Shown piece by piece: positions 6,832-55,935 of a stretch of DNA of 64,000 nt. A program made the position numbers and the translations under genes. The notes under the pieces are model-generated. The model saw only the letters and a program-made list of their open reading frames with translations. It searched no databases and was not told the DNA's origin. Position 1 is the stretch's first letter, and each line of letters opens with the position of its first letter. The DNA is from a virus, in the IMG/VR virus record IMGVR_UViG_3300043449_002510, positions 32,001 through 96,000 of that record; one strand, given 5' to 3'.

Positions 6832-7107
6832 ATGAACTACGAAAATAGACAATATATGATATTTAATGTTAGTGAATTATCTAATATTAATTTTTCGGAA
6901 GTTTTAGAAACTTCTTCGGAAACAGTCCGAAAAAGCGTGGATGGTAGTAAAACTTTTGTTAAATGGGATGGCGAAAATACTCCACCCTCTGTTGAAGCTT
7001 TAGTTACAAAAGAGGGGCCATATACTTACTCAGAAATTTTGTCAATTTTGCAAACTCCAGAATGGACGCCGCCCGCCACAATTGGAGAATTAGCAAATGG
7101 CAACTAA
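6832..7107 (+). CDS. Hypothetical protein preceding the LamG-like cassette (possible fibre adaptor or chaperone)
   Basis: 91-aa ORF overlapping the next start; function inferred from context only. Confidence 0.65.
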   Translation: MNYENRQYMIFNVSELSNINFSEVLETSSETVRKSVDGSKTFVKWDGENTPPSVEALVTKEGPYTYSEILSILQTPEWTPPATIGELANGN

Positions 7108-7759: not shown

Positions 7760-7761
7760 TT

Positions 7762-8439: not shown

Positions 8440-8442
8440 AAT

Positions 8443-9168
8443 ATGGCCTTTAAACATTCACCAACGATCATCACAGATGGGCTCGTCTTATGTTTGGACG
8501 CGGCCAGTCCAAAAAGCTATACCAGTGGTAGCGCCACTTGGTATGACTTAAGCAGAAACGGCAACAATGGCACTTTAACAAATGGCCCGACTTTTAGTTC
8601 TGAAAACAGGGGAAGTATTGTATTTGATGGGACAAATGATTATGGAAGTGTTCCATGTTCAAAATTTCAATCTGGCAATAACGAATTTTCTATGGCAGTC
8701 TGGTTTAAATGGAGAGGAGATGGATCGGCTAATATAGATGGTATTTTCGGTTATGGATTGGATGCGCCGGGAGGTGGTCAATGCGCAGTTATAGCTATAG
8801 ATGCTTCTAGTTTTTTAGCATTTGATTTCGGGTCTGGGGCTGGGTTGGTTAAAAGTTTATCAACTATGTCTCAAAATATTTGGTATTATGCAATTTATGT
8901 TTATGATAAAAGTACATCAAAATTATATTTAAATGGAAAAATAGAAAATTTTACAAATTACTCTTCTGCAAATGTAAACTTAACCGGAAGTAATGGCGCA
9001 AATGCTGGAATAGGTTGTCTTTTTAGTCCTTATGGCAACGTTTCTAGTCCTCAACGATATGGCACATTTAATGGAAATATTTCTATAATTAAATATTATA
9101 ATCGTGCTTTATCAGCGTCTGAAGTTCTCCAAAATTATAATGCAACTAAAGGTAGATTTAATTTATAA
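8443..9168 (+). CDS. LamG/concanavalin A-like lectin-domain protein, paralog 3
   Basis: Same motifs; KLYLNG...FNGNISIIKYYNRALSASEV. Confidence 0.8.
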   Translation: MAFKHSPTIITDGLVLCLDAASPKSYTSGSATWYDLSRNGNNGTLTNGPTFSSENRGSIVFDGTNDYGSVPCSKFQSGNNEFSMAVWFKWRGDGSANIDGIFGYGLDAPGGGQCAVIAIDASSFLAFDFGSGAGLVKSLSTMSQNIWYYAIYVYDKSTSKLYLNGKIENFTNYSSANVNLTGSNGANAGIGCLFSPYGNVSSPQRYGTFNGNISIIKYYNRALSASEVLQNYNATKGRFNL

Positions 9169-19112: not shown

Positions 19113-22100
19113 ATGGCAATGCAATTAAATGTTACGGTTAATCCCGTATTTAATAATTCTCAATTTACGGCAGCAGGAGTTCAGGCAGGATCTAATTTTG
19201 CTAATGGATTAAATTCTGCTATTTCTAAATCTCAACCATTAGGCAGAATAACTGGTCAAGTCTCTGAATTTGAAAAATCAATGGAAGCTGCAAACGCTCG
19301 CGTTTTAGCTTTCGGTGCTTCTGCTGGATCTATTTACTTGATAAAAAGCGCATTTGATAAATTGTTTTTCTCTACAGTTCAAGTTGAAAAAGCTTTAGCT
19401 GACATTAATGCGATTCTTGGAGTTGGAAGTTCTCTTTTAAAATCTTTTTCTAACGAAATATTCAAAGCCGCCTCTTTTACTGGTCAAACATTCGAAACGG
19501 CGGCAAAAGTAGCTCTTGAATTTGCTCGCCAAGGTGCTGGAGCGGAAGAAGCTGCAAAAAGGATGAAGGCTGCCCTAGAATTAATGAGAATTTCAGGTTT
19601 AAACGCAGATGAAGCCGTCAATTCTATAACTTCTTCCTTAAATGCTTTTTCAAAAGAAGCTTTAACAGCAGAAGATGTTGTAAATAGATTAACCGCTGTT
19701 GATACTAAATTCGCAGTTAGTTCAAAAGACTTGGCTAATGCACTTCAGCGTGTTGGGGCCGTTGCTAGTGACGCCGGAATTCAATTTAATGAACTCTTAG
19801 GTTTAGTTACCGCCGCTCAAACTATAACTGCTCGCGGTGGAGCAGTTATTGGTAACGCATTTAAATCTATTTTTACTAGATTAGCTAGACCTCAAGTTTT
19901 AGATGACTTGGAGGCCGTGGGAGTTACAACAAGAAATGCTTCTGGACAAATTCTTCCAATGATAAGCGTTTTAAAAAATCTTGCTAATCAATACAACTCT
20001 CTTGGTTCAGCACAGAAATCTTTTATATCTGAATCTGTTGGCGGAGTTTATCAAGTCAATATTTTAAAAGCGGCCTTGGCTGATTTAGGTGATGGCATTT
20101 CTATTTTTGATAAAGCAACAATTGCGGCAGGTCAATCTACTGGATTAATTCAAAAAAGAATGGAAGAGCTTAATGAAACAATTTCTTCCAAACTTAATAC
20201 TTCTGCTGTGGAATTGACAAAATTATTCGCTGATCTTGGACAAAAAGCTTTTGGTTCAAGCGCAAAAGGAGCAATAGACGCCTTTAATAAAAATATATCA
20301 TTTTTAAGTAATGCATTAAGTGACGTAGAGCCAGATGATAATGTTGGAGAACAAATAGGTAAAACCATTGCTCAAGGAATTGTTAAAGGAATAGGGGGAA
20401 TTATATCTGGCCCAGGAGTTCAAATCGCAGCAGTTTTATTAACAAAAATGTTTTCCAACATCGGGAAGTTTGCCATTGAGGCTTCTCGTGATTTTATGGG
20501 AGCAAATGAGGCTTTAAAAAAGCAGGAAAGTATTGTTAGTAGCATTCAAAACTTCTTAAGTAAAAATCCAACTATCCTCCAAGCAATAAAAGCTGGACAA
20601 TTAAATGTAAATCAAGCTCATTTAATTTATTTACAGCAGTTGCAACAAGAAAATCAACTTAGGGCTCAGAATGCTGCTATAGCTACAACAATTGCGACTA
20701 ATGCTGCACCTTATATAACTACTTCTAAAAAACAAACTCCTGGAGCTGGTTATATTCCTAATTTTGCCCAAGATGAAAGTAGTACTGAAAAAAGAATTGC
20801 TCTTAATCATGGATATGCTCCAGGCCCCACTTATAAAAAAATAATTCATGATGGAAAAGGTGGAGCTTTTTTAACTACAGTAAATGGAGCAGAAAATATA
20901 TATAACTTTACTAATAAAAAGGGTTATAAAGCTACAATGGTTGTTCCACCTAATGGATTTGGAGAAAACACAATGATGGCTGGCTCTGGTTTTATTCCAA
21001 ATTTTGCTAAAATTTCTCGAACTGGAACACAAATATCAAATAATAAAAGTTTTTCAACATTAATTAGTGGAAAACATGCAAATGGAATAGATACATTTAG
21101 TGCAAGCTATAATTTATTTACTTTAAATGAAACTAATAAACAGATTGAGAGAGAAGCGAAGGCAAAAAATATAAGTAAAGGAAGATTAACTGAATTAAAG
21201 GCAATTGAATATTTAAAGAAAAAATCTCCAAACAAAAAAGCCAATGACCTTAATGAAATTAATAGTACATATCCTTTTGATTTAGAACAGGGTGGTAATT
21301 TTTATGAAGTAAGGGGAAGAAGAAATGTTGGAGCGACCGCTCTCGTAGCAAAAGCTGCAAGATATAAAATAAATAAAAATAATAAATTTAATAATGTTAC
21401 TTTTGATTCTCCTCCCAAAAAACAATCAGAAGAATTAGGAAATTTTAATTTAATAACTTTAAAAAATTCTATATTAGCTAGCGAATTCTTAAATAAAGGA
21501 AGTGGATTTATTCCAAATTTCGCAGAGTCTTCTTTGCCGCCAATTCCATTTCAAATAGTTGGATTAAATAAAAAATTAAAAAATCTCAAAGAAAAAGCAA
21601 AACAAGATCCAAAACTTTGGGATCAATTTAGAATGGCGTATCAAGACCATGCCATAAAAATTTTTGAAAAAAAATTAACACAATTATATCCGGGAACAGT
21701 AATAAAAAGTTCTACTCCAACTGCAAACATTAGTGGAGCTGGACTTGGATTCACTGGTAAAAAAAGTTTTCCTGGATTCGATGGAGTTACAGAAATACAA
21801 ACAGTTAATCCAGATTTATTACAAATATTAGGATGGCCACCTAACAAAAATTCAGGAAAAATTCTTATTTCAGCAAAATCTGGATCTGAAAAAGGAGCAG
21901 ATGTAAGAGAACAATTCGGAAAAGGAGTAAGCGCTCTTTCTTCATCTGGATATTTAAAACCGGAAGAACCTTTTTATTCACTTGTAGCTGGACTTGTTCC
22001 TGGATCTGGTTTAAAACCAAATAATCCACTTCATCCTTTGGGACACGCCTATGCGTCTGGTTTTATTCCAAATTTTGTTTCTGAAAATGCAATTAATGCA

Positions 22101-25100
22101 CTGAGAGAAATTGCAAGTGGAAAGCGTGGTGGTACGAAAGCAGAAATTGCGAACGCACAAGAAAAAATAAATAAAATTTTAGGCTCAGATAAATTAAGTA
22201 AATCTTTAATATTAACGAACAGATCTTTATTTGGCAAAAAATTAGACTCTGATGCTTTGGCATATATTTCTAAAACTTCTCCAGAACAATTAACCAAAGA
22301 CTTAAAAAGTGGTTATTTAGAGGGATCAATTGGCCACGATCTTTCTAATTTTAGAAATTCAATATTTAGCGCTGGTTCTGGTTTTCTTCCAAATTTTGCT
22401 TATGGTTATTATTCTAAATATAGTTCTTCATATGGCAAACAAAGTGGATATAAACCTAGTAAAAGTTTACAAAAAGAAAAGGAAGAAAAGAGAAGACAAA
22501 AAGAATTATATGGAAATTATTATAAAAGCCCAGAAATAACAAGTAATCCTTGGTCAAAAAATTTCGGTAAAGATTTTTCTGCTTCAGGATTTCTACCAAA
22601 CTTTGGTTACTTAAAAAAAGTAATGGGATTAGAAAAAACTCTTAGCGGCAAGGAGCCAATTTTAGATACCACTACTGGTCCATTTCCTTTTATTAGGAAT
22701 ACAGACCAACCGAATTTTGCAGCAGCGGTCGCTGATCATGGAGGATTAAAAAATGCCTTAAAAGATTCTTCTAAAAATCAAAAAGCCGCTGGAATAATGG
22801 CTGGAGGTGGTTTTATTCCAAATTTTGGAGTAGAAGAAAGTTTAATGCTTGGCGTTGTTCAAGCTTTTTCTGGACAATTATCTTCAAAATTAAAACCTCT
22901 TTCTTTTGGATATGATAAACAAATTGAAGAAAGTCAAAAAGTAGTTTCTGCAGCTCAACCATTAGCCGACGCTTTTGACGAATTAAAAAATAAATTGGCT
23001 TCCGTAAGCAAACAATATAAAGAAGAAGCTAAAAAACGACAAACGCCAAAGAGAAGAGCCGAGCAACAAGCAAGAATCTCAGAAATGAAATCTGTCTCTG
23101 CAGAAATGCGTGTAAAACGAACTGAATATAAAAAAGAAACGGGATTAGATATTAACAGACAAAAAAGAGAAGATCAAGCTAAAAAATTTGTTGAATATGA
23201 ACAAAAATTAACAGGAACAAGAGAAAAAATACAGGGTATCAGTGGTATCGCTTCTATTGTTTCTCCAATGGCTGGAGGTATGGCGGCCTCTGCATTAAAA
23301 ACACTTGGAGTCTCACCAGATACCACAAAGGGAGTAGAAACTTTATTTGAAGGAGCAGGTATGGCTGGACAAGCATTAATGGCCATGCCTAATCCAATCG
23401 GAATAGCAGTTGCTGGACTTTTAGGCGTCACCAAAATAAACACAGCCTTAAATGAATTTACTTCTGGTCTTGAAAAGGCAAAAGCGTCTTATGAAAGAGA
23501 AATGCAATCAATAGAAAAAACAACTAATGCATTAAATTCAATTCAACAAAATTATCAAAATTTAGATAATATTTTAAAATCTGGAACCGCTTCTCTTTCT
23601 CAATTTTTATCTGCAAATAGAAAATTTTCAGAATCAATGGTTAAACTAGCTTCTGCTAATCCACAATTAGCAGAAAAAATGAGAAAAGCCACTACAGAAG
23701 AAGAAAGAATGGCAATTCAGAGTGAATTTTCAGAGGCTTCTGAATTAAAAAAGAGACAAAAAGAATTCGACGTAATGTACGCCGAGAGGAAAAAAGAAAC
23801 AAATGTTTTAGGGTCAAATGTTCTTGCGATGGGTCGTGAAAGAGGGAGATTTTCTGTTGGAATGTTTGCTGGAAAAGAAGAGGAAAAAAAAGTAGAAAGC
23901 GAATTAAAAGAAGCCGCAACATTAATTCAATCTGAAGTTATAGATGCTCTTTCAAAGAGTGAGAAAAAAGAAGAAAGAGATTTAGCGGCAGAAATAACCA
24001 GAGGTTTATCAAAAGGATACATTACTGAAGAAAACAAAAAAGAATTATTAAGTTATGCTGAATATGGAAGAGAAGGAAAACAGTATTCTGAAACTATTGG
24101 CAAAATGGATATTTATGCAGAAATAAAGGCTTCTTTACAAGAGTTATCTAAAATTCTCGATACTTTTGGAATGAGTGCAAGCAGTGTTGAACAATACGAA
24201 AATCTTCTAAAAGAACAAAACGAAATAACTAGTAAACAAAATGCAATAAGAAGAAAACATAACCAAGATTTACAAAACTCACTAAATAGAGGTATTACGC
24301 TTGGGATGATTGAAAATAAAAGACGCCAACAATCATTAGAACAAAAAGAAAGAGATACGGGCATGAAATATGCTTTTGAAGAATCTAATATAAATTTAGA
24401 GTCTTTGGTTTCTTCCGAAGCGGATATACGTTATAGACGCGGAGTTTCGAGACAAAATCAAATAATTGAAGAAGGACAATTAAAACAAGAAAAAACAAAG
24501 AGTGTCTTTGAAGAAAATCGTCTTGGACAATTAATGGAAGTAGTTAAACAACAAATGGAGGCAAAAAATGCTTCTTCATTAAAAAGTGGTAAAGATGTTT
24601 ATAGTATAGAGCCATCTAAAGAATCCCAATCCCTTGCTAATTTTTTAGAATCAAAATCTAAAGAATTTTCTGGAGGAAATGTTGGAAAATTAACTGAATT
24701 ATTAAAATTGACTCCAGAAAAATTTACTGAAGCTTTTCTTGGTCCAAAAGAGAAAGCGCAAAAAGATTTTGGAATTTCGAGTTCAACTTATGACACATTA
24801 TTTACAGATATACAAACCCTTACTCTTTCGGGAAAAAATACAGAAGAAACTAATAATTATTTAAATGATTTATTAAGAACCGCGCAAGAAACCAAGAATA
24901 ATGCTGAAAAAAATGCTTTAGAAACTCAAACTGCAATTAAAGAAATTAGTTTCAAAGAACTAAGTCAATCATTAGGCGGTTTAAGTTTGCTGGAAAGAGG
25001 TGGAGTTAGAAAAGAGCGTAGAGAAATAAGAAGAGCTGAATTTCTTGCTGAACGCGGAGCAACTCCAGAAGCTAGAGCTAGAGGAGCTGCTGCTTTATTA

Positions 25101-25946
25101 AAACGTATACCAGAAACCATGAGAGATGTTAGAAATCCAATGGTTGCTGATTTACTTAAAACAGTTGAATTAGGATTTCGATCTGGCAATGAAAAAGTTT
25201 TATCTGGAACTAAATTAGGTGCTTCTGGTTTAATGGGAAGTCCTGAACAAATGATTCTAGCTCAAACATATGGAAATATAAAAACATCTGGATTAGGAGA
25301 AGACTTCTTTAAGAAAGCGGGATTAACTATTGAAAAAGGAGAGATTGGTCGAGGTCAATTTCAAGAATTAAACACTGAGCCTTTACAACAATCCATAACA
25401 AAAATATCTTCATCTTTATATATTTGGGAAACAAATCTTTTAAACTCAATCAAATCAGTAAATTTTAATTCAGTAAAAACACAACTTTCTGATTTGGAAG
25501 AAGCTTCAAAAGGCGTGACTGACGAATTGAGAAATTTAAAAGAAAGCCTTACTCCGAAAACTCCAGTGGAATCAAAAGGTTCACCAAAAGCTATTCCAAC
25601 TAGTTTCGCTAATTTACAAGCGGTAGTAAGTAAAAACGCACCCTCTGAAACTTTAAATGTTACTCAATCAACTCCAAAAGTTAAAAAAACACCAGCAGGA
25701 AAAGAAGAGGAGTCTAAAAAGACAGAAAATAAATCAGAACAAGGAACGTCTGCATTAAATGAGGAATTAATTGAAAATATAAGATCATTAACTTCTGTCA
25801 TGAATGAAGCTGCAAATGCTTTTAAAGAATCTAAATCAACAATGAGCGCTGATGAACTTAAACGGGCTTTCGGTCCAACTAATGAAATTTTAGGCTCAAT
25901 TCTTGGCGCAACTCAGTCAGATAAAAATTTACCAGTTTCAGTATAA
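19113..25946 (+). CDS. Tail tape measure protein (TP901-like N-terminal core) with an internal multi-module insert
   Basis: Ala-rich helical N-terminus (VEKALADINAIL...EFARQG...DLANALQRVG...GGAVIGNAFKSIFTRL), hydrophobic segments and a long coiled-coil C-terminal half; position after the chaperones. Confidence 0.9.
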   Translation: MAMQLNVTVNPVFNNSQFTAAGVQAGSNFANGLNSAISKSQPLGRITGQVSEFEKSMEAANARVLAFGASAGSIYLIKSAFDKLFFSTVQVEKALADINAILGVGSSLLKSFSNEIFKAASFTGQTFETAAKVALEFARQGAGAEEAAKRMKAALELMRISGLNADEAVNSITSSLNAFSKEALTAEDVVNRLTAVDTKFAVSSKDLANALQRVGAVASDAGIQFNELLGLVTAAQTITARGGAVIGNAFKSIFTRLARPQVLDDLEAVGVTTRNASGQILPMISVLKNLANQYNSLGSAQKSFISESVGGVYQVNILKAALADLGDGISIFDKATIAAGQSTGLIQKRMEELNETISSKLNTSAVELTKLFADLGQKAFGSSAKGAIDAFNKNISFLSNALSDVEPDDNVGEQIGKTIAQGIVKGIGGIISGPGVQIAAVLLTKMFSNIGKFAIEASRDFMGANEALKKQESIVSSIQNFLSKNPTILQAIKAGQLNVNQAHLIYLQQLQQENQLRAQNAAIATTIATNAAPYITTSKKQTPGAGYIPNFAQDESSTEKRIALNHGYAPGPTYKKIIHDGKGGAFLTTVNGAENIYNFTNKKGYKATMVVPPNGFGENTMMAGSGFIPNFAKISRTGTQISNNKSFSTLISGKHANGIDTFSASYNLFTLNETNKQIEREAKAKNISKGRLTELKAIEYLKKKSPNKKANDLNEINSTYPFDLEQGGNFYEVRGRRNVGATALVAKAARYKINKNNKFNNVTFDSPPKKQSEELGNFNLITLKNSILASEFLNKGSGFIPNFAESSLPPIPFQIVGLNKKLKNLKEKAKQDPKLWDQFRMAYQDHAIKIFEKKLTQLYPGTVIKSSTPTANISGAGLGFTGKKSFPGFDGVTEIQTVNPDLLQILGWPPNKNSGKILISAKSGSEKGADVREQFGKGVSALSSSGYLKPEEPFYSLVAGLVPGSGLKPNNPLHPLGHAYASGFIPNFVSENAINALREIASGKRGGTKAEIANAQEKINKILGSDKLSKSLILTNRSLFGKKLDSDALAYISKTSPEQLTKDLKSGYLEGSIGHDLSNFRNSIFSAGSGFLPNFAYGYYSKYSSSYGKQSGYKPSKSLQKEKEEKRRQKELYGNYYKSPEITSNPWSKNFGKDFSASGFLPNFGYLKKVMGLEKTLSGKEPILDTTTGPFPFIRNTDQPNFAAAVADHGGLKNALKDSSKNQKAAGIMAGGGFIPNFGVEESLMLGVVQAFSGQLSSKLKPLSFGYDKQIEESQKVVSAAQPLADAFDELKNKLASVSKQYKEEAKKRQTPKRRAEQQARISEMKSVSAEMRVKRTEYKKETGLDINRQKREDQAKKFVEYEQKLTGTREKIQGISGIASIVSPMAGGMAASALKTLGVSPDTTKGVETLFEGAGMAGQALMAMPNPIGIAVAGLLGVTKINTALNEFTSGLEKAKASYEREMQSIEKTTNALNSIQQNYQNLDNILKSGTASLSQFLSANRKFSESMVKLASANPQLAEKMRKATTEEERMAIQSEFSEASELKKRQKEFDVMYAERKKETNVLGSNVLAMGRERGRFSVGMFAGKEEEKKVESELKEAATLIQSEVIDALSKSEKKEERDLAAEITRGLSKGYITEENKKELLSYAEYGREGKQYSETIGKMDIYAEIKASLQELSKILDTFGMSASSVEQYENLLKEQNEITSKQNAIRRKHNQDLQNSLNRGITLGMIENKRRQQSLEQKERDTGMKYAFEESNINLESLVSSEADIRYRRGVSRQNQIIEEGQLKQEKTKSVFEENRLGQLMEVVKQQMEAKNASSLKSGKDVYSIEPSKESQSLANFLESKSKEFSGGNVGKLTELLKLTPEKFTEAFLGPKEKAQKDFGISSSTYDTLFTDIQTLTLSGKNTEETNNYLNDLLRTAQETKNNAEKNALETQTAIKEISFKELSQSLGGLSLLERGGVRKERREIRRAEFLAERGATPEARARGAAALLKRIPETMRDVRNPMVADLLKTVELGFRSGNEKVLSGTKLGASGLMGSPEQMILAQTYGNIKTSGLGEDFFKKAGLTIEKGEIGRGQFQELNTEPLQQSITKISSSLYIWETNLLNSIKSVNFNSVKTQLSDLEEASKGVTDELRNLKESLTPKTPVESKGSPKAIPTSFANLQAVVSKNAPSETLNVTQSTPKVKKTPAGKEEESKKTENKSEQGTSALNEELIENIRSLTSVMNEAANAFKESKSTMSADELKRAFGPTNEILGSILGATQSDKNLPVSV
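20748..22826 (+). repeat. Seven dispersed in-frame G(F/Y)(I/L)PNF motifs inside the TMP
   Basis: Motif Gly codons at 20748, 20988, 21504, 22059, 22380, 22587 and 22809; three copies share the identical 18-mer ggttttattccaaatttt. Confidence 0.95.
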
Positions 25947-25961
25947 TATTTAAATAAATGT

Positions 25962-27752
25962 ATGTCATTTAAAGGTTTAATAACGGGAACATTAGGATAT
26001 GAATTAAGAAAAGATTTCTTAGCTAATTCTTTAATGTATCGTGAATTAGAAACTTTTAATTATGATATTTATAGCGTAGATTTTTCTGGACTTAGTGCTT
26101 TAGAAATTCAAAAACAAATAAAAAATGAATTTAATAACATTTATTCTGGTGATATAAACGTTAAAGTTTTTAATACAGCTAATGCTTTACAATATCCAAG
26201 CGACAGTATTAGAGCCGCACGTTATACAGTTAATGTAGAGATAGCCAAATCTCTTTCATATTCACTTTTAACTGGCCAATTTCCAGAGCTTGAAACAAGT
26301 TATTTTAAAGGTATAGATTCTTTGTTTTGGGCTAATAATGGAAAATATATATTAGATTTTAAAGAAGATTATGGTTTTGGAATAAATAGTAATGGTAATA
26401 GAGAATTTAATCACAATCTTTCGTTTTCTTTGAGAAGTGGGAAAATTTCAGATCAAATTGAAAGAAAAAATCTTGCTCAGAAGATCGCGACGGGAATATT
26501 TGATCAGGACAAAAATACAACATTTGGAATATCTTTGCTTTCTGGAGAGATTTCTTCAGTAGGAGATGCTTCAACTTTTAGAAATTATTATAATGAATCT
26601 TACGATTACTTCAAAAATTCTTATTCTTTTTCGAGACGTAGAGAATTATTACCTTTTTCTGATGCCAACACAATTTTTAATATAAATCAAACATTGACAA
26701 TGAATGAAAATGGAATCATTGACATTATTGAAAAAGGTTTTACTTTAGGAAAAATAAATTTTTCATTAGCTAAAAATGATTTAGAAAATACTTTATCTCA
26801 ATCTTATAATCGTTGTACTGGATTTTATTATAAATTTTATAATACTGGAATATTATTGCAAGATTCTCAATATAAAGATAATTTACCATTTAATTTTCTT
26901 CCATTAATTAACACTCCAGTAAAATTAGTAAAAAATTATGATGTAAATGTTCTAGCCGCAAATTATGAAGTTACATATACTAATAACCCCCAATTTTCTG
27001 GAGACGGAACGGTGACTTCCCAAACTGTTGAATTCAACATCAATGAATTTAATAAAGTTGAAGCAACTCATTCTTATGATTATACTTTAAATAAAATAAT
27101 TAAAAATTCAGATTATTTTGTTACGGGATTATTCAAATATACCACTGGAGAAAGTCCTTCCTTAATGTTTAATTATTATACAGGAATTTACTCAAATATA
27201 TTTTCAGTATATCCAAATTTAAATTTAACAAAATCTTCAGCTAATTTTCCTAATATAAAAACAAAAGCATCTGTTAGATTTACATATAATAATGATCCAA
27301 CTTATTTTGTAAATGTAAATGGAAAAGAGTTTAAAATTTTTGATGTAACAATTGACAAAAAAAATCCAACAGATATTGTAAGTGAATACAAAATTATAAA
27401 TCGAACAACAAAAGATAAAAAATCTATATTATCTTATGCTTATCAGACAGAAAAAGGAAGTATCATAATAAAAATTGTTGCAAATATAGGAAAATATAGT
27501 AAGCAATTCATTTCTGACGGAGTGGGAGACTTTTTATTAGTTGGATCAGATCATTCTTTTAAATTAAGCGAATATCTTGAAGCGATTTATAAATTTGCTG
27601 GACAAGCATTTTTTAATAATTTTGGACAACCAATGTCTGCTTTTAATTGGTTTATTGAAGATTCAAATTATTCTTTTAGTTCTGAAGGAATAATTGATGT
27701 CTCAATAACTTATGCTTATACATTAAAGAAAAGGAATTCAAACAATTTTTAA
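25962..27752 (+). CDS. Putative tail tip/baseplate protein
   Basis: Beta-rich 596 aa, directly after the TMP. Confidence 0.55.
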   Translation: MSFKGLITGTLGYELRKDFLANSLMYRELETFNYDIYSVDFSGLSALEIQKQIKNEFNNIYSGDINVKVFNTANALQYPSDSIRAARYTVNVEIAKSLSYSLLTGQFPELETSYFKGIDSLFWANNGKYILDFKEDYGFGINSNGNREFNHNLSFSLRSGKISDQIERKNLAQKIATGIFDQDKNTTFGISLLSGEISSVGDASTFRNYYNESYDYFKNSYSFSRRRELLPFSDANTIFNINQTLTMNENGIIDIIEKGFTLGKINFSLAKNDLENTLSQSYNRCTGFYYKFYNTGILLQDSQYKDNLPFNFLPLINTPVKLVKNYDVNVLAANYEVTYTNNPQFSGDGTVTSQTVEFNINEFNKVEATHSYDYTLNKIIKNSDYFVTGLFKYTTGESPSLMFNYYTGIYSNIFSVYPNLNLTKSSANFPNIKTKASVRFTYNNDPTYFVNVNGKEFKIFDVTIDKKNPTDIVSEYKIINRTTKDKKSILSYAYQTEKGSIIIKIVANIGKYSKQFISDGVGDFLLVGSDHSFKLSEYLEAIYKFAGQAFFNNFGQPMSAFNWFIEDSNYSFSSEGIIDVSITYAYTLKKRNSNNF

Positions 27753-27761
27753 AATAATTTT

Positions 27762-29411
27762 ATGCCATTAGATAGAAGACTTTATGTTTATTATGATGAC
27801 AAGGAGTTGTATCCAACTCCTTTAATTAATTATAGTTATCAACCAATAAATTTTGGCTATATTTATGGATATAATACAGAAATAACTCTAGAAGGGATAA
27901 TTACAGGAATAGATAATAAGGAATCTGGGATATCAGAGATAACTGGAATATTTGCAAAACAATTTTCTACTTTAAAAGTGGAAAACGAAAAACATAGTGG
28001 AATTTATCAATGGAATAATGTAACTGTTGACAATATAAGTTTTGAACAAAGTCAATATTTAAAAGGGAGTTTTGTAAAATATAACGTTAAATGTTTTGTT
28101 TATGATATACCAAGTGGAGTAATAGATCCTTCAAACGAATATTCTTTTACACAAAATGAAGATGGGACAGTAAACGTTAATCACAAAATTAGTGCGAGAG
28201 GTGTAAGAAATAATTTAGGAGCATTTCAAAATGCAATAAATTTTGTAAAATCTTTTACTGGAAAAGATCCTTTTTCAAATTGTGTGCCCTACTTTGTCCC
28301 TAGTGGATCTGGAGTTTTATTAAATTTATCTGAAAATATAAATAGAGCAGATGGAATTTATTCTGTTACTGAGGTATATAAGTATAATACGGGAGTTATT
28401 TCTGAAGCTTTACATATTACATCATTAGATATTGATGAAAGCTTGGGGTCTGAATATAGTTCAATAAGTTATAATTTAAAAGTTATTGGTTCTCCAATTT
28501 ATAAGAATACAGACTCAATTATAAGTAATTATTTAAATTATAATCTTTTAAATGATATTCAAAATGATTTTGGTTTAAATACATCTGGCTGGGTAAAAAA
28601 TACATATTCTGCCGCCGTTGATTCTGGAGCCGCAACAATTGATATAAAAGTCGAATATCTTTCTGGCGCAAATCCTAGTGGTTTTTTTGATTATGTTATA
28701 TCTTGCGACAAGGATCATTTAATGGGAATAGAAAATTGGAAGATAGAGGGAGAATTTAAATGTTTCGGTCCTTTAGATTATAAAATTAATCAATTAAACG
28801 CTTTCAAATCTACAAATAAGAATAATTCTTGGAGAACGTATTTAATTAATTTGATAACTAATTCGCAAATTTACAATTCTTTACATGATGTAGACAAAGT
28901 TTTTTCTATAAACACAAACGTTAATCAGGATGAAAATTTAAAAATCGGAGCTTTAAAGTTATCTCTTACTTTAAATATGGGATACGAGCCTGATGGACTT
29001 GCTGATTTAAAATATTCAATTAATGGAAGTCCAAGCAAATGGATCTACGAACTTATGCCATCGGTTAATATAGAAGGGGCTTATGTTGTTCAAAGTTTGG
29101 AGACAAAAACGAATGGCGTAATTGAATTAAATGTTTCAGCTAAATCTCTTCAAAAAGAAAATGGATTGAATCTATGCAATAGTTATATAAATAATTTGGC
29201 AAATACTTACATTGATTCTGGAAATGATTTGAATGTGAAAGCATTTTTGATTGAAGATTTTTATTCTACTGGAACATACGATGTTTCTTACTCAAAAAAA
29301 TTTATAGGAAATATAAAAGATATAGATTCAACTTTGGTTAATTTACAATGTTTTGGAACATTTGATTATTCAGTGCCAACAAGAATAAAAGGATATAATT
29401 TTGGTTACTAA
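27762..29411 (+). CDS. Putative tail tip/baseplate protein, possibly a distant paralog of the preceding gene
   Basis: 549 aa; NEYSFTQNEDGTVNVNHKISARG resembles EDYGFGINSNGNREFNHNLSFS in the 25962 product. Confidence 0.55.
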   Translation: MPLDRRLYVYYDDKELYPTPLINYSYQPINFGYIYGYNTEITLEGIITGIDNKESGISEITGIFAKQFSTLKVENEKHSGIYQWNNVTVDNISFEQSQYLKGSFVKYNVKCFVYDIPSGVIDPSNEYSFTQNEDGTVNVNHKISARGVRNNLGAFQNAINFVKSFTGKDPFSNCVPYFVPSGSGVLLNLSENINRADGIYSVTEVYKYNTGVISEALHITSLDIDESLGSEYSSISYNLKVIGSPIYKNTDSIISNYLNYNLLNDIQNDFGLNTSGWVKNTYSAAVDSGAATIDIKVEYLSGANPSGFFDYVISCDKDHLMGIENWKIEGEFKCFGPLDYKINQLNAFKSTNKNNSWRTYLINLITNSQIYNSLHDVDKVFSINTNVNQDENLKIGALKLSLTLNMGYEPDGLADLKYSINGSPSKWIYELMPSVNIEGAYVVQSLETKTNGVIELNVSAKSLQKENGLNLCNSYINNLANTYIDSGNDLNVKAFLIEDFYSTGTYDVSYSKKFIGNIKDIDSTLVNLQCFGTFDYSVPTRIKGYNFGY

Positions 29412-29444: not shown

Positions 29445-32375
29445 ATGAATAAGGATGTATTTTTAAATTGTTTGTCATATACTGGAATTAATACAGGAAT
29501 TTCAGTAATGGGTCTTTATTCTTTTTCTAGTGGTCTTTCTGGAGCTTGTTTCAATCAATTGTATTCATCTGGATATAATTATTTTAGTGGATTGCCGTAT
29601 GAAGGCGCTCTTCCATTAATTTATAATGGGGCTGGAAATCAAACTAGTGGTATTTTTTCTTCTAATCAGTCGTATCATATACCAATAAAAAATTTTAATA
29701 GTTTTGGTGCTTTAATTTCTTTAAATCATAGTGGCTGTTTAAATACTGGAAATACTAATTTAGTTTTATTCTCTACTGTTTCTGATTTCTCAGGAATAAA
29801 TTCTGGGATAGTATTGGGAATTACTCCTTCTAATAGGTTGTTTTTAAATGCTTCTGGATATCTTTCGACCATTTCAGAAGAAATAACTCCAAATGATTTT
29901 GTTTTCGTTAGTTTAGAAGAGAAAAGATTTGTTAATTTTGGAATATTTAACATAAAACATAATGAATTTTATAAAAAATCTTATGATTATAATTCTTCAG
30001 ATTTAATTATTGAGAAATTGTATTTTGGAGGGGTTTTGAAATATCCTTCTATTTATACGGGTTATTCTGGAAAATTAAATGAAATTTATTTTTTTAGTGG
30101 AGCTATAGATGATTTTTTGTTTAACTCTTGTATTGATTGCACTTATGCAACCGGATATTCTTATTCGCAATCAATAGATATTTTTAATCAAGTAAAAATA
30201 ACAGGTTCTTTCTGGAGTGGAATAAAAGAAACAAGAATTACTGGAAGCAAAAAAACAACGGGCACTTTTTTAAAAACCGATGGTTCAACTGGTAATTTTT
30301 ATTATGATTCTGGCTTAAGTGGAAGTGTAGAAGTTTATCAAAACTTATTTCCCGGAACAGGAATAGAAAATTTATATATAACAGGTAGTGGTATAGATTT
30401 TTATTTTGATTCTAGTAAAAAAATTTCTCAAACAAGTTTTGATTTATTTTTTGATCTGGGGTTAGATTCTGGAGATGTTCTGGAAATTTATACATATAAA
30501 AATTTTAATCCTAATGTTAACTTAAATATTATTGACGATTTTTTCCCATCTACAGATAATTATGTTCAATTATTTGCCAACGGTTTGGCCGAAACGAAGG
30601 ATGGAGAAAGTCAATATTTTTCAGATTTTTATACTGGTTTTAATAATAAAATTTATAATTTTGATTCGCAAGATATTCTTTCTTGTGATTTTACTACTGG
30701 AAATTCTATAACTATTCCTTACAATAATCAAGGTTGCATTACTGGTGAAGCCACTTCAAGCGAAGTGATTGATATATATCAAATAAACGCCTATCCCTTC
30801 TTCCCAGAGGTAAGTAGCGAAGAAGAAATTCCTCCTTTTATTTACGATCTTTATTTGAATGGCAAAAAATTAATAAGTGGTTTAGACTATATTATAACTG
30901 GAGTTCCGGGGGGTATTGATGGTTGGTCTAATCATATTTATCTTTCTGGAGATAATAGTTTGTTATTTAATTTAGAAAATCCTCAAGAATTTAAATTAGT
31001 TATATCTCAACCAAATTATGTAAGAAATTTATTTTATATAACTAAAGATACTCATTATTTAACTGGTTTGTCTGGATTTTCAGAGCAAATTTGGAAAAAT
31101 GGTATTCGTCAAAAAAATAAAATAGACTATTATATAAAGAATTCTTGTAATTTTTATTCTGGAGAATATTTAGATCCAAACTATTCTTTCCAATTATTAA
31201 ATTCTACAAATTCGTTTATTAATGATTTTACAAGTTTAGGTAATTATGTTTATAGAAATGCTCAACAACAAATAGAATCATTGACTCAAAATTCATCTGT
31301 TGATACGAAGAAAATTTTTTCAAATACTGATTTTATTAATTATGAAACTCAAACTTCTTTGCCTTCATGCGTTTTTAGTGGAAGTGGAGTAAATAAAAAT
31401 TTATACGTAACAAATATAAGCTCTGGAACAATAAAGAGTGGAATGTTTATATATGGGGCAAATTATCAAAATCAAATTATAACAGGATTTGTCCAAGGAA
31501 CCTATGGAAATACCGGTTTATATTCAACAAATACATCAGATAACTTTTCTCAAAAATTATTGACTGGCTATTCTATTCCAAATTTTGAAAGAAATACTGG
31601 TTGTTGGGTTTATCCTCTTGGAAAAGAATTGACATGTATCAGCCCATGGAATTCTCACAATTTATTTGAATCAAATACTAGAACTTGCACTTTAATAACT
31701 CCACAACATGTATTATGCGCCACTCACTTTCCACCAAATTCTGCCGGAAATACAATTGTTTTTGTAACGGAAGATAATCAAATAATTACAAGAAAAGTCG
31801 TAGATAATTCTTATGTCCAAAATTTCATGAGTGATTTACTTGTTATTTTGTTAGATTCTCCATTGCCAGATTCAATAAAACCATGTCTTTTATTACCTTC
31901 TAATTATTTAAATTATTTAAATTTTAAACCTATTATTAGTAACATTCAATATAGTTATAAACATACTTCTCCGGAAGTTTGCGGTCTTTTTTTAGACAAG
32001 CAAAAACAAGCCAATATAGGCGCTATGGAATTCGGTTTTAAATTAGATGGTGTTAATATAATAAGTAATGGAACAAGAACCGTTAGAATAATAGATTCAG
32101 AAAATGAACTTTTGAAATCTTTTTATGAACAAGTTATTGTTGGAGACTCTGGTAGCCCTCTTTTTCTTATAATAAATGGAAAACTGTGCTTGTTAACTAC
32201 ATTTAAAGATCCTGGAGGTGGACATTTGGTGGGAGATTATATTTCTTATATTAATTCCGCTATAGCAACACTAAAAATAGAAAATCCAGATTGGATTTCT
32301 ACTGATTATACAGTTACAGAATTTGACTTTTCTGAATTTGATAAACGAAATAATTATCCATTTTTTTATCCTTAA
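29445..32375 (+). CDS. Tail protein with an N-terminal LamG-like region and a C-terminal trypsin-fold serine protease
   Basis: YSGKLNEIYFFSG LamG-like strand; triad motifs TLITPQHVLCATH (His, 31725), SDLLVILLD (Asp, 31833) and VGDSGSPLF (Ser, 32148). Confidence 0.8.
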   Translation: MNKDVFLNCLSYTGINTGISVMGLYSFSSGLSGACFNQLYSSGYNYFSGLPYEGALPLIYNGAGNQTSGIFSSNQSYHIPIKNFNSFGALISLNHSGCLNTGNTNLVLFSTVSDFSGINSGIVLGITPSNRLFLNASGYLSTISEEITPNDFVFVSLEEKRFVNFGIFNIKHNEFYKKSYDYNSSDLIIEKLYFGGVLKYPSIYTGYSGKLNEIYFFSGAIDDFLFNSCIDCTYATGYSYSQSIDIFNQVKITGSFWSGIKETRITGSKKTTGTFLKTDGSTGNFYYDSGLSGSVEVYQNLFPGTGIENLYITGSGIDFYFDSSKKISQTSFDLFFDLGLDSGDVLEIYTYKNFNPNVNLNIIDDFFPSTDNYVQLFANGLAETKDGESQYFSDFYTGFNNKIYNFDSQDILSCDFTTGNSITIPYNNQGCITGEATSSEVIDIYQINAYPFFPEVSSEEEIPPFIYDLYLNGKKLISGLDYIITGVPGGIDGWSNHIYLSGDNSLLFNLENPQEFKLVISQPNYVRNLFYITKDTHYLTGLSGFSEQIWKNGIRQKNKIDYYIKNSCNFYSGEYLDPNYSFQLLNSTNSFINDFTSLGNYVYRNAQQQIESLTQNSSVDTKKIFSNTDFINYETQTSLPSCVFSGSGVNKNLYVTNISSGTIKSGMFIYGANYQNQIITGFVQGTYGNTGLYSTNTSDNFSQKLLTGYSIPNFERNTGCWVYPLGKELTCISPWNSHNLFESNTRTCTLITPQHVLCATHFPPNSAGNTIVFVTEDNQIITRKVVDNSYVQNFMSDLLVILLDSPLPDSIKPCLLLPSNYLNYLNFKPIISNIQYSYKHTSPEVCGLFLDKQKQANIGAMEFGFKLDGVNIISNGTRTVRIIDSENELLKSFYEQVIVGDSGSPLFLIINGKLCLLTTFKDPGGGHLVGDYISYINSAIATLKIENPDWISTDYTVTEFDFSEFDKRNNYPFFYP

Positions 32376-42920: not shown

Positions 42921-45900
42921 ATGAATTTAGGAGAAAAAAATTCAACATTAAAGAATAAAGTTTTTGATGGAGCTTATTCTGTTTTTATTACTTCAATTGA
43001 TCCAGAGTTGGAGAGTTTTTGGATTTCTACGGGAATAAATCCAAGTGGGGTAACTGGCATTTTAGTAAAATATACTAGCGGTAACAAAAATATTGAAAGT
43101 GGATTTTATGCCACAGGATTAAGGCCAAATATAGGATATCAATCTGGAGCGTCAAGCGTTGGTGATTTAAGTGGATATCTTTACTACAGGGTAAATGTTC
43201 CCATTTTTGGGACATGTCATGGATTTGGAAATGATGAAAATACTTGGTATAGCGGATATAATTTTTATAACGCTTTTCATCCAGAGGGATTTGTCTCTCC
43301 ACCTTTTGGACAAAATTTTTCCACTTACAAAGCTGGAAATTATGGGTTTTCAGCTTTAGATTTAAATGGTAGCTGCTCTTCTTTGACTTCAAAAGAATAT
43401 AATGATTTATTCGGTATAGTTTCTCAAAGTGATGATGGAATTACAGCTTCGGCAGAAGAAATAGATCCTCAAGCTGATTCTTTTTTAAATTCTCCAGCTA
43501 TAGCTTGTCCACAAGATCTGTCTGTTGCTTATTATTGGAGAGAAAAGCAATATAAAATAATAGCTGGTACAGCCGGTGCAATTACTGCGAATATATTTTT
43601 TAATAATAATCCTATTCCAATTTCATTGGATATGTTTGATATTAAAACTAGCTTTAGATATGATTCCAGTGGAGAAAAATTAGATGGAGATTTATACGAA
43701 GATTCAGATGGAAGAAAAAAAGAAAAAATTTTATATACAATAAAATATTTAAATGGTAAACCAGTTCCCAAATATTACAATTTAGTAACTAAAGGCAGTA
43801 ATCCTCTATTAAGTAAAACATGTTACGGCTCCATAACTGAAGGGAAATTGGTAGAAGGAAGTGTTTTAGGCAGTACACAAATTACAAGTTTGTTAATAGA
43901 TTCTCCAGACATTCTTGGAGAGCCATCAAAAAGCGCTTTTGATCCTTTTGTTTGGTGGAATTCTTGGCATTTTTTGTTTAAAGAAAATTCTGATGGGTTT
44001 CCTTTTCAAAATGACTATAAATCTTACTCTACTGAAGGTGGAGATTATTTTGGTCTTGCAAAAACTCCTAATAGTGCAAATTATGGAAGCAAAATATTTA
44101 AAGCTGAATTATCTGACCCAGATCATTATTGGGAAAATAGACAATGCCCAGGAATTGTAGATTTCCTTCCTCATACTTTTGGAGCTTCTATATATGCTTG
44201 TCCATCTTATTATTTTGATGTTCCATATTATGCTGCTTTAAATAAATTTGGTTTTTATGGAGTTAGGTTTTTTAATGGTTGCGTTAGTTTAAATTTGAAC
44301 TATCCATCCTCTGGATATAATCCTAATTCGAACCCTCCTTCTGGAGCGGAAAATGCTTTAGAGCTTCCCGGAGAAGGTTATTCTTATGTTTATCCAGAAG
44401 AAGATGAGCCAGATGAAGATGTTGGAATAAATTATGGAAATAATATATATGATAATTTATTAAATATAGCTAAATCAGAAGAGTCGGTTAATGATTTTTT
44501 TGCTTTAAACAAGTCTTTTTTTCTGTGGGCAAATTATCAAATAATCACTGGTATTAATGAATATAATATTTTAACAGGAAAATATTCTTTCTTTTCTGGC
44601 TTATTGTCAAGATATTTAAATGAATTTGATTTAATTTTTCCAAGTGGTAAAAACGATTTATTGTCAAATAAAAATTGGTTTCAATTACAAGAGTCAAAGT
44701 TATTTTTTGATACTGGATTTTCTTCCTCACTTCTTTCGAATAATGAAAATTACAAACAGTTAACAAAATCTATACTTAATTCGATTTCTCCAGAAGATCT
44801 TTCTTTCTGGGATAAAATAGAAAAAGAATTTTCTAATTACGTTTTGTTTGAGTCTGGAATAGTTGACACCGGATTTTATGACTCGTTTGAGAAAGCAAAA
44901 ATAGAAAGATTCCAAACTAGATATTTAGAAAATTTTGTACAAGGCAATGCAATAGATTTATACCCATCAAATAAAATAACTTTCGGTTTTGATTACGCAA
45001 AAAATTTTATAGATAGTCCATCTTGGGGGAAAGCAATAAATCTTTTTGGCTTAACTTCTAAATTTGAAGACTCGGGATTAGATAGAAGATATTTTGTTGG
45101 TGCTTATGCAGAAGCATTAGATTTCGTTGGATATTCAGAGTACATAAATTTAATAAATTCTCAAATAGAAAATCATTCGTTCTATCCGGGTTATTTTAAT
45201 TCTAAATTTGGAAAAGATTTTCAAGATGAAGAATATTTGCCGGTATTAATGGGTAATGCTTTTTCTGGAGAAGAGATAAATAAAAATACAATTACTGGGG
45301 GAAGAAATATATTTAAAGATGGTTGGTTTGCCTTGGGATATGGAGGAATGATTAAATTAAAAAATTCTTATTCTTGTTTTACTCCCATTTTTATTCAACA
45401 ACCGATAAATACAGTTCATTGTAAAATAGGACAATCTCCAACTTTCAGATGTTTGGCAGTTGACTATCACACCATTCCAGAAGATAAGATAAATGATCGA
45501 TATCCAGAAATAATTTATTGGACTAAGAAATTAAAAATAATAGATTCAAAATATAAAAATAAATACCCTTTATCTTATAAATGGTTCAGAATACCTAAAT
45601 CAAGCTGTGGAAATAATTTTGATAATTTTTTACTTAGTGGTTATTTTACAAACACGGGAACTACTGATTATTTTCATAATCCAACCGGTTTTCCTCCTTT
45701 GGAACCTTCTGATATAAGTGGAAAGTGGTGCTGTCTAGAAGGAGATGGTCCAAATTGCACTTTAATTCACCCAAAAGAATGTATTCCTGTTTTTTCTGGT
45801 AACGCTTCTTGGTCTTCAAAATATGAAGGAACTCCTGGATTCGAAGATGCTAAAAGAAATAATTTCTACATGAAATTAAAAAAAGGAGCAATTAAGGATG

Positions 45901-47828
45901 AAGATGATGAATATTATTATTTTTGTATGACAAAAGGAAGATTTGGAATTAGAATTAGCGAACCTTCTGAATTATTTGTAGATGAAACTTTAAGATTTGA
46001 TATATCTGTTCAAAATGGAGGTAATTCAAAAATTAATCCAAAAATTTCTTTTGACTTCGGAACTGGGATAATAGAAATCGGAGAAGTTGAAGTTCCTTCT
46101 TATGGAGGTTTTTATAAAGATTCAAATTTTATACCAGAAAACATAGTTCAACAAAAAATACCTCCTCCAAATAAAGGTTTTGGAGATGTTTATTCATATA
46201 AATTTGTTGGAACTTGGGGTTATGGAGGAGCTTTACAAACTTACTCACCGGGAACATTAGACGACACGAGAGGTTTAAAAGAAACATGGGGTAGATTTTT
46301 ACATTATGGATCATTAATAAAATATCAAAAACAATTGTCTCAGTCAGAGGGAGATTTAATTTATGGGACTCCTCATTTACCAACCTGTGTTAGCGGTTTA
46401 ATAAAAGAAGATAAATATGGTTTATTTCTAAACATAAGCGTTGACACAAAAAATGGTTCTTCAAAAATTATTCATTGGGCAAATATGCAGGACCCAATTG
46501 TTAGTACAGATGGAAAATTCGGAGTTCTTTGGAAAAAATTAGGAAACGCTGGAGAGCTTTATAATCCAATTTCTTATTTAAAGAATGGAGCAATAGATTC
46601 CTCTATATCTCCCGGTTTAGGGCAGTGGCAGTGGGGAAATAATTTGGGAACAATCCACAAGTTTGGATATACGAGTCCAAACAGTGAATTAAAAACCTCT
46701 CCTGGATTTTTAAATGACGATAACAAAAATGAATTGAAAGAAAAACTATTAAAGAATAGTTTGGATGGTCCTGATTGTGGTTGGAATGAATACGGTTTGG
46801 GAAGAAATATGCTTTATTGGATTGAAGGTTTTAGCTCTTTTTATCTTTTTTGTGATCCAATCAAAAAGAAGAATGTAACTAATTATAACTATATGGGTCC
46901 GGCATTGAGACAAACAAATAGTTCAATTCAACATTTTTGGCTTGGTAAACCATCAAATACTTATTTAAAAAGATATCCAATGTTTGGGCCTTATGCATAT
47001 CAATGGAAAGTTATGCCACATAATAGAGATAGAAATGGTAATGGAATGTCAGAAGGATTTTACTCTTATGGTTGGGGAACAAACTATAACTCCATGTATG
47101 ATGCACCAGCTATATATGGTTTATTTAGACAATACAAAGAACCTTCAGAAGGACAACAAGAAGAAATAAATCAAATAAATAATTTAAGAACAGAAATTTT
47201 TGGGGTGTTTGGTCAAGCAGCAGTGAGAAGTACTCGTTTCGGATTTACTTATGGAAATGGTGGAGCAGTTCGATATGGAAATATTTGGATAGGAAAAATA
47301 ACGGAAACTGGAACCGGAATAAATTATCCTAATTATAAGATTCGAGAATATGTTAAATCTGGGGAATACTTATCTAAGTATCCAAAATTTGGATTGTATG
47401 GATGCGATGATTCTGATTTAAAAAATGGGGATTGTTTTGACCCATGTTTAAGTATACGATATCCTTTTGGATTTTTACCGGGAGGAAAAAAACAAAAACT
47501 TACAAGTGCGGTACCTAGTGGCTCTGGTTATAGTATAGTTGCAAACAATATATTTTCTGGAGATTCTTTTTATGAAAAAACTTCTTATTTAAGTGGCGAA
47601 TTTTTTCGGGGCCCCTTTGGAACTCCTCATCATATATATTTAAAAGGAACAGGAAAAAACATAAATGGTTTTTCTCCTTGTTCTGATGGTGGAGCAGATC
47701 ATTGCAATTATCTTACTCCAACTATCAATTTAGGGGCTTCTTCTTATTTATCTACAGAAATTCCAACTATGATATCTGCTTCAGCGGTAGCAACTTCTTC
47801 AATTGATTACGTGCTTCCTAATTTATAA
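42921..47828 (+). CDS. Giant Cys/Trp/Tyr-rich virion-like protein with an interrupted Ig-like domain
   Basis: 1635 aa; PIFIQQP...GQSPTFRCLA...PLSYKWFR...YYYFCMTKGRFGIRISEPSEL; GTGTATTT motif upstream. Confidence 0.6.
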   Translation: MNLGEKNSTLKNKVFDGAYSVFITSIDPELESFWISTGINPSGVTGILVKYTSGNKNIESGFYATGLRPNIGYQSGASSVGDLSGYLYYRVNVPIFGTCHGFGNDENTWYSGYNFYNAFHPEGFVSPPFGQNFSTYKAGNYGFSALDLNGSCSSLTSKEYNDLFGIVSQSDDGITASAEEIDPQADSFLNSPAIACPQDLSVAYYWREKQYKIIAGTAGAITANIFFNNNPIPISLDMFDIKTSFRYDSSGEKLDGDLYEDSDGRKKEKILYTIKYLNGKPVPKYYNLVTKGSNPLLSKTCYGSITEGKLVEGSVLGSTQITSLLIDSPDILGEPSKSAFDPFVWWNSWHFLFKENSDGFPFQNDYKSYSTEGGDYFGLAKTPNSANYGSKIFKAELSDPDHYWENRQCPGIVDFLPHTFGASIYACPSYYFDVPYYAALNKFGFYGVRFFNGCVSLNLNYPSSGYNPNSNPPSGAENALELPGEGYSYVYPEEDEPDEDVGINYGNNIYDNLLNIAKSEESVNDFFALNKSFFLWANYQIITGINEYNILTGKYSFFSGLLSRYLNEFDLIFPSGKNDLLSNKNWFQLQESKLFFDTGFSSSLLSNNENYKQLTKSILNSISPEDLSFWDKIEKEFSNYVLFESGIVDTGFYDSFEKAKIERFQTRYLENFVQGNAIDLYPSNKITFGFDYAKNFIDSPSWGKAINLFGLTSKFEDSGLDRRYFVGAYAEALDFVGYSEYINLINSQIENHSFYPGYFNSKFGKDFQDEEYLPVLMGNAFSGEEINKNTITGGRNIFKDGWFALGYGGMIKLKNSYSCFTPIFIQQPINTVHCKIGQSPTFRCLAVDYHTIPEDKINDRYPEIIYWTKKLKIIDSKYKNKYPLSYKWFRIPKSSCGNNFDNFLLSGYFTNTGTTDYFHNPTGFPPLEPSDISGKWCCLEGDGPNCTLIHPKECIPVFSGNASWSSKYEGTPGFEDAKRNNFYMKLKKGAIKDEDDEYYYFCMTKGRFGIRISEPSELFVDETLRFDISVQNGGNSKINPKISFDFGTGIIEIGEVEVPSYGGFYKDSNFIPENIVQQKIPPPNKGFGDVYSYKFVGTWGYGGALQTYSPGTLDDTRGLKETWGRFLHYGSLIKYQKQLSQSEGDLIYGTPHLPTCVSGLIKEDKYGLFLNISVDTKNGSSKIIHWANMQDPIVSTDGKFGVLWKKLGNAGELYNPISYLKNGAIDSSISPGLGQWQWGNNLGTIHKFGYTSPNSELKTSPGFLNDDNKNELKEKLLKNSLDGPDCGWNEYGLGRNMLYWIEGFSSFYLFCDPIKKKNVTNYNYMGPALRQTNSSIQHFWLGKPSNTYLKRYPMFGPYAYQWKVMPHNRDRNGNGMSEGFYSYGWGTNYNSMYDAPAIYGLFRQYKEPSEGQQEEINQINNLRTEIFGVFGQAAVRSTRFGFTYGNGGAVRYGNIWIGKITETGTGINYPNYKIREYVKSGEYLSKYPKFGLYGCDDSDLKNGDCFDPCLSIRYPFGFLPGGKKQKLTSAVPSGSGYSIVANNIFSGDSFYEKTSYLSGEFFRGPFGTPHHIYLKGTGKNINGFSPCSDGGADHCNYLTPTINLGASSYLSTEIPTMISASAVATSSIDYVLPNL

Positions 47829-47839
47829 TATAATGCTTT

Positions 47840-55933: not shown

Positions 55934-55935
55934 AT

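Follow-up and report, generated by a model that had tools for sequence, protein, structure and literature searches.

What a serine protease fused to a phage tail protein might be for is the question raised by P0001, a protein of 976 residues encoded on the plus strand (29445–32375) by the third gene after that for the tape measure protein (TMP). The window analysed here is the whole stretch of 64,000 nucleotides that corresponds to bases 32001–96000 of the 124,148-bp virus record IMGVR_UViG_3300043449_002510 (IMG/VR; estimated 81% complete, GC content 31%). A first-pass annotation had proposed that the protease cuts the TMP at repeated GFIPNF sites and processes itself at an IPNF of its own. 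The data presented below do not link the protease to GFIPNF arrays and lead us to lean, on balance, towards P0001 being a host-envelope-directed virion protease module carried by a conserved tail-tip or baseplate protein, rather than a dedicated TMP protease.

The C-terminus of P0001 forms a domain of ∼260 residues for which a trypsin/chymotrypsin fold is confidently predicted; its limits according to the family hidden Markov model (HMM) are residues 710–966 (31572–32342, plus strand). The AlphaFold2 model obtained with the family alignment has a predicted local distance difference test score (pLDDT) of 88.3 and a predicted template modelling score (pTM) of 0.89. Comparison with 48,161 chains by VIA-align gave a best Z of 17.1 (1ym0_A, root mean square deviation 3.7 Å, 193 residues aligned) and 112 chains at Z ≥ 8, those listed being S1 proteases, while Foldseek returned at least 500 PDB matches at E ≤ 0.001, of which the listed rows are nearly all S1-type proteases or protease-like domains. 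The earthworm fibrinolytic enzyme (1ym0), Streptomyces griseus trypsin (2fmj) and staphylococcal V8 protease (1qy6), all of the S1/PA clan, share with the domain the same double beta-barrel (Z 15.5–17.1, 177–201 residues aligned), the His-Asp-Ser order and the GDSGxP signature. Unlike these comparators, which are secreted alone, the P0001 family is fused to phage tail or fibre proteins and has a lead-in ([DN]HxxxxY[VTI]RNxxCW) and a conserved C-terminal tail (TGYxLTxxDLSxF) of its own. It is also too distant for the Pfam Trypsin family, PF00089, to which the domain scored 12.1 bits (E 0.17) over domain residues 40–115 only, below the gathering cut-off of 20.6. Searched by sequence, the domain had 0 matches in the PDB at E ≤ 10, and the profile of alignment A2 retrieved from the same database mainly Big_2-type matches belonging to partner domains, with trypsin matches that were weak (E 0.045–1).

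Conservation of the active site was assessed in a family alignment of 132 rows, for which 131 of the 150 matches listed, plus P0003, were aligned with the P0001 domain, proteins longer than about 700 residues being left out. The putative catalytic residues are His761 (codon CAC at 31725–31727, within CATHF), Asp797 (GAT at 31833–31835, within SDLLVILLD) and Ser902 (TCT at 32148–32150, within GDSGSP), all on the plus strand, and the same residues are found in 131, 129 and 131 of the 132 rows, respectively. The triad is intact in 128 of the 130 rows that are free of gaps at these columns, the two exceptions having one Asn and one Glu, both in the Asp column. The order His, Asp, Ser is that of S1 proteases, G-D-S-G-x-P is near-invariant, and 130 of 132 rows have the Asp that precedes the catalytic Ser. 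With the fold taken from the model and the triad from the alignment, the domain appears to be a PA-clan serine protease whose active site looks intact, as the first-pass annotation had read it from a complete His/Asp/Ser triad at the C-terminus of the third gene after the TMP. The same annotation had placed Gln at the usual S1 position, and this is borne out at the level of linear sequence position, from which, rather than from coordinates, the equivalence to chymotrypsin residue 189 was drawn: Gln896 (CAA, 32130–32132, plus strand) lies six residues before Ser902. Its column is highly variable across the family (S 26, D 22, T 16, N 13, P 10, L 9, G 8 and Q 6; n = 132), a pattern that is easier to reconcile with a range of substrates than with a single one.

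The protease is an optional, exchangeable C-terminal add-on to a conserved tail protein. BLAST boundaries divide P0001 into a conserved core of ∼600 residues (residues 1–597; 29445–31235, plus strand), which is common to 22 other proteins, a linker or small domain of ∼108 residues (residues 598–705; 31236–31559, plus strand), which is common to P0003 only and at whose start the swap point lies, and the protease domain. At E ≤ 0.001 the core is matched by 23 proteins including P0001 itself: 14 consist of the core alone (544–618 residues), five carry other extensions and four carry the protease, these protease-bearing orthologs being P0001, P0003, P0179 and P0064, the last with repeated copies. 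In P0168, which with 74% identity over the core is the closest ortholog, the C-terminal extension contains a ConA-like lectin domain (residues 699–886; PF13385, E 8.5e-11). Related phages hence exchange the module and retain the part that anchors it, and P0001 is itself encoded within a tail module, on a tail protein whose core is found at the same position in 23 viral loci. For residues 1–700 of P0001, the ESM Atlas gave LamG/ConA-like leads (scores 0.88–0.90, template modelling score <0.5) that are too weak to use. No match to P0001 was obtained by tblastn against 50,697 phage records, and a related-locus search of viral contigs using P0001 alone gave 24 pattern matches, of which 0 were confirmed.

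The TMP of the window (2277 residues; 19113–25946, plus strand), considered here as context only, is recognised by PF10145 (E 5.5e-25) and by 12 PHROG TMP families. It contains seven copies of G[FY][IL]PNF within 20748–22826 (plus strand), as 18-nucleotide motifs that start at 20748, 20988, 21504, 22059, 22380, 22587 and 22809. These copies are a point in favour of a protease that cuts the TMP at the G[FY][IL]PNF junctions and frees or activates itself at its own IPNF, as is the precedent of T5 and lambda, for which the available part of PMC10038345 reports that T5 pb2 is cut after R1127 and that lambda gpH is also cut, in both cases during tail assembly. That same part describes no tail-tip trypsin-like protease, and cites a 1973 title on the involvement of the host in T5 cleavage.

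The first-pass annotation had named beforehand two findings that would speak against such a role, namely that phages with GFIPNF arrays commonly lack the protease and that homologs of the protease lack the IPNF, and both were observed. A motif scan of viral contigs yielded at least 149 stretches, from which 41 distinct array-bearing contigs were chosen and 32 searched over the whole record, with the window's own genome and the genome G024 as positive controls for the protease query. The protease was found in one of the 32 records (G024, locus L134) and in none of the four with a completeness of at least 90%; by hand count, 27 of the 32 reach at least 6.5 kb past the TMP, and one of these 27 has the protease. 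The family HMM run over the array-bearing loci likewise found it in L134 only. Here, as in the window, the protease is on the third gene after the TMP, which is a point for the TMP-cutting proposal from the only other array-bearing record with the protease. Viewed from the other side, none of 75 protease-bearing viral loci (up to 10 kb on each side) has G[FYW][ILVM]PNF in any open reading frame (ORF) of at least 100 residues. In 23 viral loci that encode the orthologous tail protein, the protease is absent from the surrounding 10 kb in every case, though in 12 the motif can be seen in the part of the upstream TMP that is covered, and a search of the whole record for 14 of these loci found the protease in 0. 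The T5/lambda parallel thus fails here for want of co-occurrence.

The G[FYW][ILVM]PNF arrays themselves, of 2–9 copies, occur in many giant TMP-like ORFs (1,732–5,097 residues) of uncultured phage contigs (L077–L155, from the at least 149 stretches). A separate family of 199–253 residues (phrog_32199, of unknown function) has an invariant GFIPNF in the context [EY][FY]GFIPNF[DE], as in L091:6565–7317, L094:9612–10310, L106:2098–2727 and 14 further ORFs; no giant TMP is present in the gene neighbourhood of these proteins.

The IPNF of P0001 occurs, as had been noted, in TGYSIPNFE (31563–31589, plus strand) just upstream of the domain. Its position three residues before a conserved R-N at the domain start, and an expectation from composition of 0.023 for IPNF in P0001 alone, can be counted in favour of a processing site. 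However, ahead of the first barrel the family has a lead-in with the consensus [DN]-H-x-x-x-x-Y-[VTI]-R-N-x-x-C-W, to which G-Y-S-I-P-N-F-E-R-N aligns as a lineage-specific variant: F falls on the Tyr column (Y in 112 and F in 15 of 132 rows), the Pro on a column with Pro in 35 of 132, and the Asn on a column with Asn in 15 of 132, while the R and N that follow are near-invariant (R11 and N12 of the domain; 123 and 120 of 132). DHSTPNYVRN is among the other variants. [ILV]PNF is present at this site in only two of the 132 aligned members, the window's own and P0147 (NYSLPNFIRN). P0003, which with 59% identity in the domain is the nearest homolog, has GYAIPIFERN, the protease of L134 has N-A-S-R-N, and P0064 and P0179 are without the motif, which leaves P0001 as one of four protease-bearing orthologs with IPNF. 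Neither is the register that of the TMP, GY-S-IPNF having one residue more than G[FY][IL]PNF, and the homology of P0001 with its core-only relatives stops near residue 597, ∼113 residues upstream, so that the IPNF is not the module junction. The remark that no other IPNF was noticed outside the TMP holds for window ORFs of at least 60 residues, in which [IL]PNF outside the TMP is otherwise confined to one 66-residue minus-strand frame, but not for the genome: composition predicts 0.53 copies of IPNF in the 37,900 non-TMP residues of the whole 124-kb genome and two are seen, so that a stray copy or two could arise by chance. The other lies outside the window (G000:C1:101451–101837) in an ORF of 129 residues that starts MNKKIYIPNFNTF. 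Given the lead-in alignment, the rarity of [ILV]PNF, the shifted register and the chance expectation, the IPNF of P0001 is best read, from the sequence comparison, as a chance local variant of a family-wide structural lead-in and not as a copy of the TMP motif. The near-invariant R-N itself (in E-R-N-T, 31587–31598) is structurally near the place of the activation bond in S1 zymogens.

A dedicated TMP-processing role for the P0001 protease is not supported by these comparisons, and we regard cleavage of the TMP by this enzyme as very improbable. The GFIPNF junction peptide of giant TMPs is not explained by the P0001 protease, and if it is cut at all, the cutter is to be sought elsewhere, as a host enzyme, a head protease or self-cleavage.

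The protease domain family itself is the more interesting result. An exhaustive HMMER search with the domain gave 2,041 representative clusters at E ≤ 0.001, of which 916 reach E ≤ 1e-10 and 9 reach E ≤ 1e-30, and 170 of 376 candidate stretches from viral contigs encode a relative; members are only 30–45% identical. Wherever a source names a member, the name is 'hypothetical protein', and Pfam, PHROGs and NCBIfam hold no model for the domain, nor did PHROGs for 20 or NCBIfam for 11 relatives tested. The family HMM matches 85 ORFs from 76 loci, most of them ∼400 residues long with the domain at the C-terminus, and a second group having it at residues 33–261. Some loci have two or three protease paralogs and some ORFs two domains; examples are an ORF of 637 residues with two protease domains (L052–L054) and three paralogous protease genes in a row (L055). 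Fusion partners include Big_2, CBM_5_12, Peptidase_S74, RCC1, FG-GAP and a collagen-like tail-fibre N-terminus, among which Big_2, CBM_5_12, Peptidase_S74 and the collagen-like partner are typical of phage fibres or surface proteins. A pattern scan of bacterial genomes gave at least 120 stretches, a biased sample, with strong matches in diverse metagenome-assembled genomes. A weaker cellular branch was seen in Verrucomicrobiota (Akkermansiaceae, Luteolibacter, Roseibacillus), with proteins of 250–340 residues and a conserved GDSGNP (L308:2845–3666, L284:2671–3696, L295:2377–3153 and ∼25 further loci); its N-termini look lipoprotein-like when read by eye, which points to extracytoplasmic action.

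A conserved active site, the swap for a lectin, multiple paralogs per phage and a variable specificity pocket together point to a host-facing, exchangeable enzyme module. The reading that we favour, though only somewhat, is one in which a conserved tail-tip or baseplate protein of ∼600 residues has acquired an exchangeable C-terminal trypsin-fold protease that would probably sit on the virion facing the host, where, as the phage adsorbs or penetrates, it would bind some protein or peptide of the host envelope and probably cut it. P0001 would then do to proteins or peptides what the tailspike depolymerases do to glycans. This comes close to the other option offered by the first-pass annotation, digestion of a proteinaceous host surface layer. 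A wider generalisation, which we put forward more tentatively and consider possible rather than probable, is that phage tail fibres and tips carry a large, unnamed family of trypsin-fold proteases as exchangeable host-range modules, 'proteolytic depolymerases' that might cut S-layers, pili or outer-membrane proteins.

Several observations weigh against a host-envelope-directed protease at the tail tip. Neither Pfam nor PHROGs has a family for any of the six proteins encoded downstream of the TMP (for P0001, none in Pfam at E ≤ 0.1), so that the neighbouring tail genes give no help in placing P0001 exactly within the tail tip; Dit-like ESM Atlas leads for the second gene after the TMP fell below the bar for acceptance. 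The neighbours of family members elsewhere are mixed, with baseplate wedge, minor tail and central fibre proteins on the one hand and endolysin or portal on the other. Inference of the host from the polymerase and the TMP N-terminus gave scattered hosts and best identities below 30%, with no cultured relative any nearer. Finally, a protease fold can act as a pure binding module, as in UmbA.

The last point leads to a rather unlikely alternative, that the protease cleft grips a host surface protein as a receptor-binding module and that cutting is no part of infection. The domain occupies the C-terminal extension in which P0168 has its lectin-type domain, and its structural matches include UmbA, through the trypsin-like domains of that protein (8w20_C, Z 15.2; 9oee_A, Z 14.8). 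UmbA, from Streptomyces umbrella toxin particles, likewise places a trypsin fold in a large extracellular targeting assembly beside lectin-type domains, and we take it to use this fold for docking. No sequence relationship between UmbA and P0001 was detected, however, and the biological setting is another. UmbA may be catalytically dead, whereas the triad is conserved in the P0001 family; moreover, a triad and GDSGxP kept in 128 of 130 rows at only 30–45% identity would be unexpected for a pure binder.

If the module does cut, its substrate could also be the cell wall, with an endopeptidase opening peptidoglycan stem peptides or cross-bridges for passage of the tail. Some S1-type proteases are bacteriolytic, for example the alpha-lytic protease of Lysobacter. 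The gene lies in a tail module shortly after the TMP, where virion-associated wall hydrolases are common according to the part of PMC6116005 available. Against this, 19 of the 23 orthologs lack the module, so that it does not belong to the core machinery of penetration, varied targets would better suit the variable S1 column and the several paralogs per phage, and there is no Pfam match to known peptidoglycan peptidase families; we judge this role improbable. A protease that cuts its own chain or neighbouring tail proteins during maturation, possibly at the near-invariant R-N, seems no more probable than a wall endopeptidase. The retention of R11 and N12 and of the Asp before the catalytic Ser argues for it, and the structural alignments begin at domain residue 15, equivalent to chymotrypsin residue 20, so that the R-N lies near the 15/16 activation bond, within alignment error. 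Yet the domain is optional among orthologous tail proteins and elsewhere is found at either terminus of a protein or in tandem, unlike what a fixed device for maturation would show.

The proposed host-envelope-directed module can be compared with known enzymes of phage tails. In Peptidase_S74, the endosialidase-type intramolecular chaperone, phage fibres also carry a C-terminal peptidase-type module, and P0078, a member of the protease family, has an S74 match elsewhere in its chain. The fold of Peptidase_S74 is another one, and it releases itself by means of a Ser-Lys dyad. P0001 differs from it in having no PF13884 match (Pfam, E ≤ 0.1), and its protease domain is also found N-terminally and in tandem elsewhere. 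Tailspike and tail-fibre depolymerases, such as the O-antigen lyase LKA1 gp49 (PMC5701251, from the part available), are likewise enzyme modules on tail proteins, exchangeable and sometimes present as several paralogs, but those known cut polysaccharides, teichoic acids or lipids, whereas the P0001 module has a peptidase fold with predicted activity.

Known virion-borne entry enzymes cut sugars, teichoic acids or peptidoglycan. In the available main text of a 2018 review of virion enzymes (PMC6116005), the word 'protease' occurs 0 times. In the literature searched, neither a phage tail fibre or tip that bears a trypsin-type protease nor an IPNF motif in tape measure proteins is described, and the 'trypsin-like' passages found in phage literature, as far as these texts were available, concern other proteins. 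If the wider generalisation holds, a tail-borne trypsin-fold family would constitute a virion enzyme class not covered by the reviews and literature searched, a widespread tail protease module would extend the range of what phages actively degrade to protein surface layers and protein receptors, and the family would be a new source of specific proteases and host-range determinants.

The P0001 gene is part of a tightly packed plus-strand tail operon, in which the TMP gene is followed by ORFs of 596, 549, 976 (P0001), 1124, 594 and 308 residues. The first two of these occupy 25962–27752 and 27762–29411 (both plus strand), and the spacing between the TMP and the ORFs up to P0001 is 9–33 nucleotides; opposite the P0001 gene, the minus strand has short ORFs only (75 and 62 residues). 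BLAST among the 16 tail-region ORFs of the window showed no paralogy. Elsewhere in the window, an ORF of 2056 residues (655–6825) has C-terminal matches only, to families of unknown function. At 7097–9168 lie three tandem paralogous ORFs (220, 225 and 241 residues), all of which match phrog_24074 and a virion structural protein family. Two adjoining giant ORFs (1635 and 1632 residues) without a PHROG match lie at 42921–52738. A DnaE-like polymerase seems to be split at 52725–56700 (minus strand), with an exonuclease-subunit gene in between: an ORF of 855 residues corresponds to positions 324–1082 of phrog_405, and one of 254 residues to positions 72–274.

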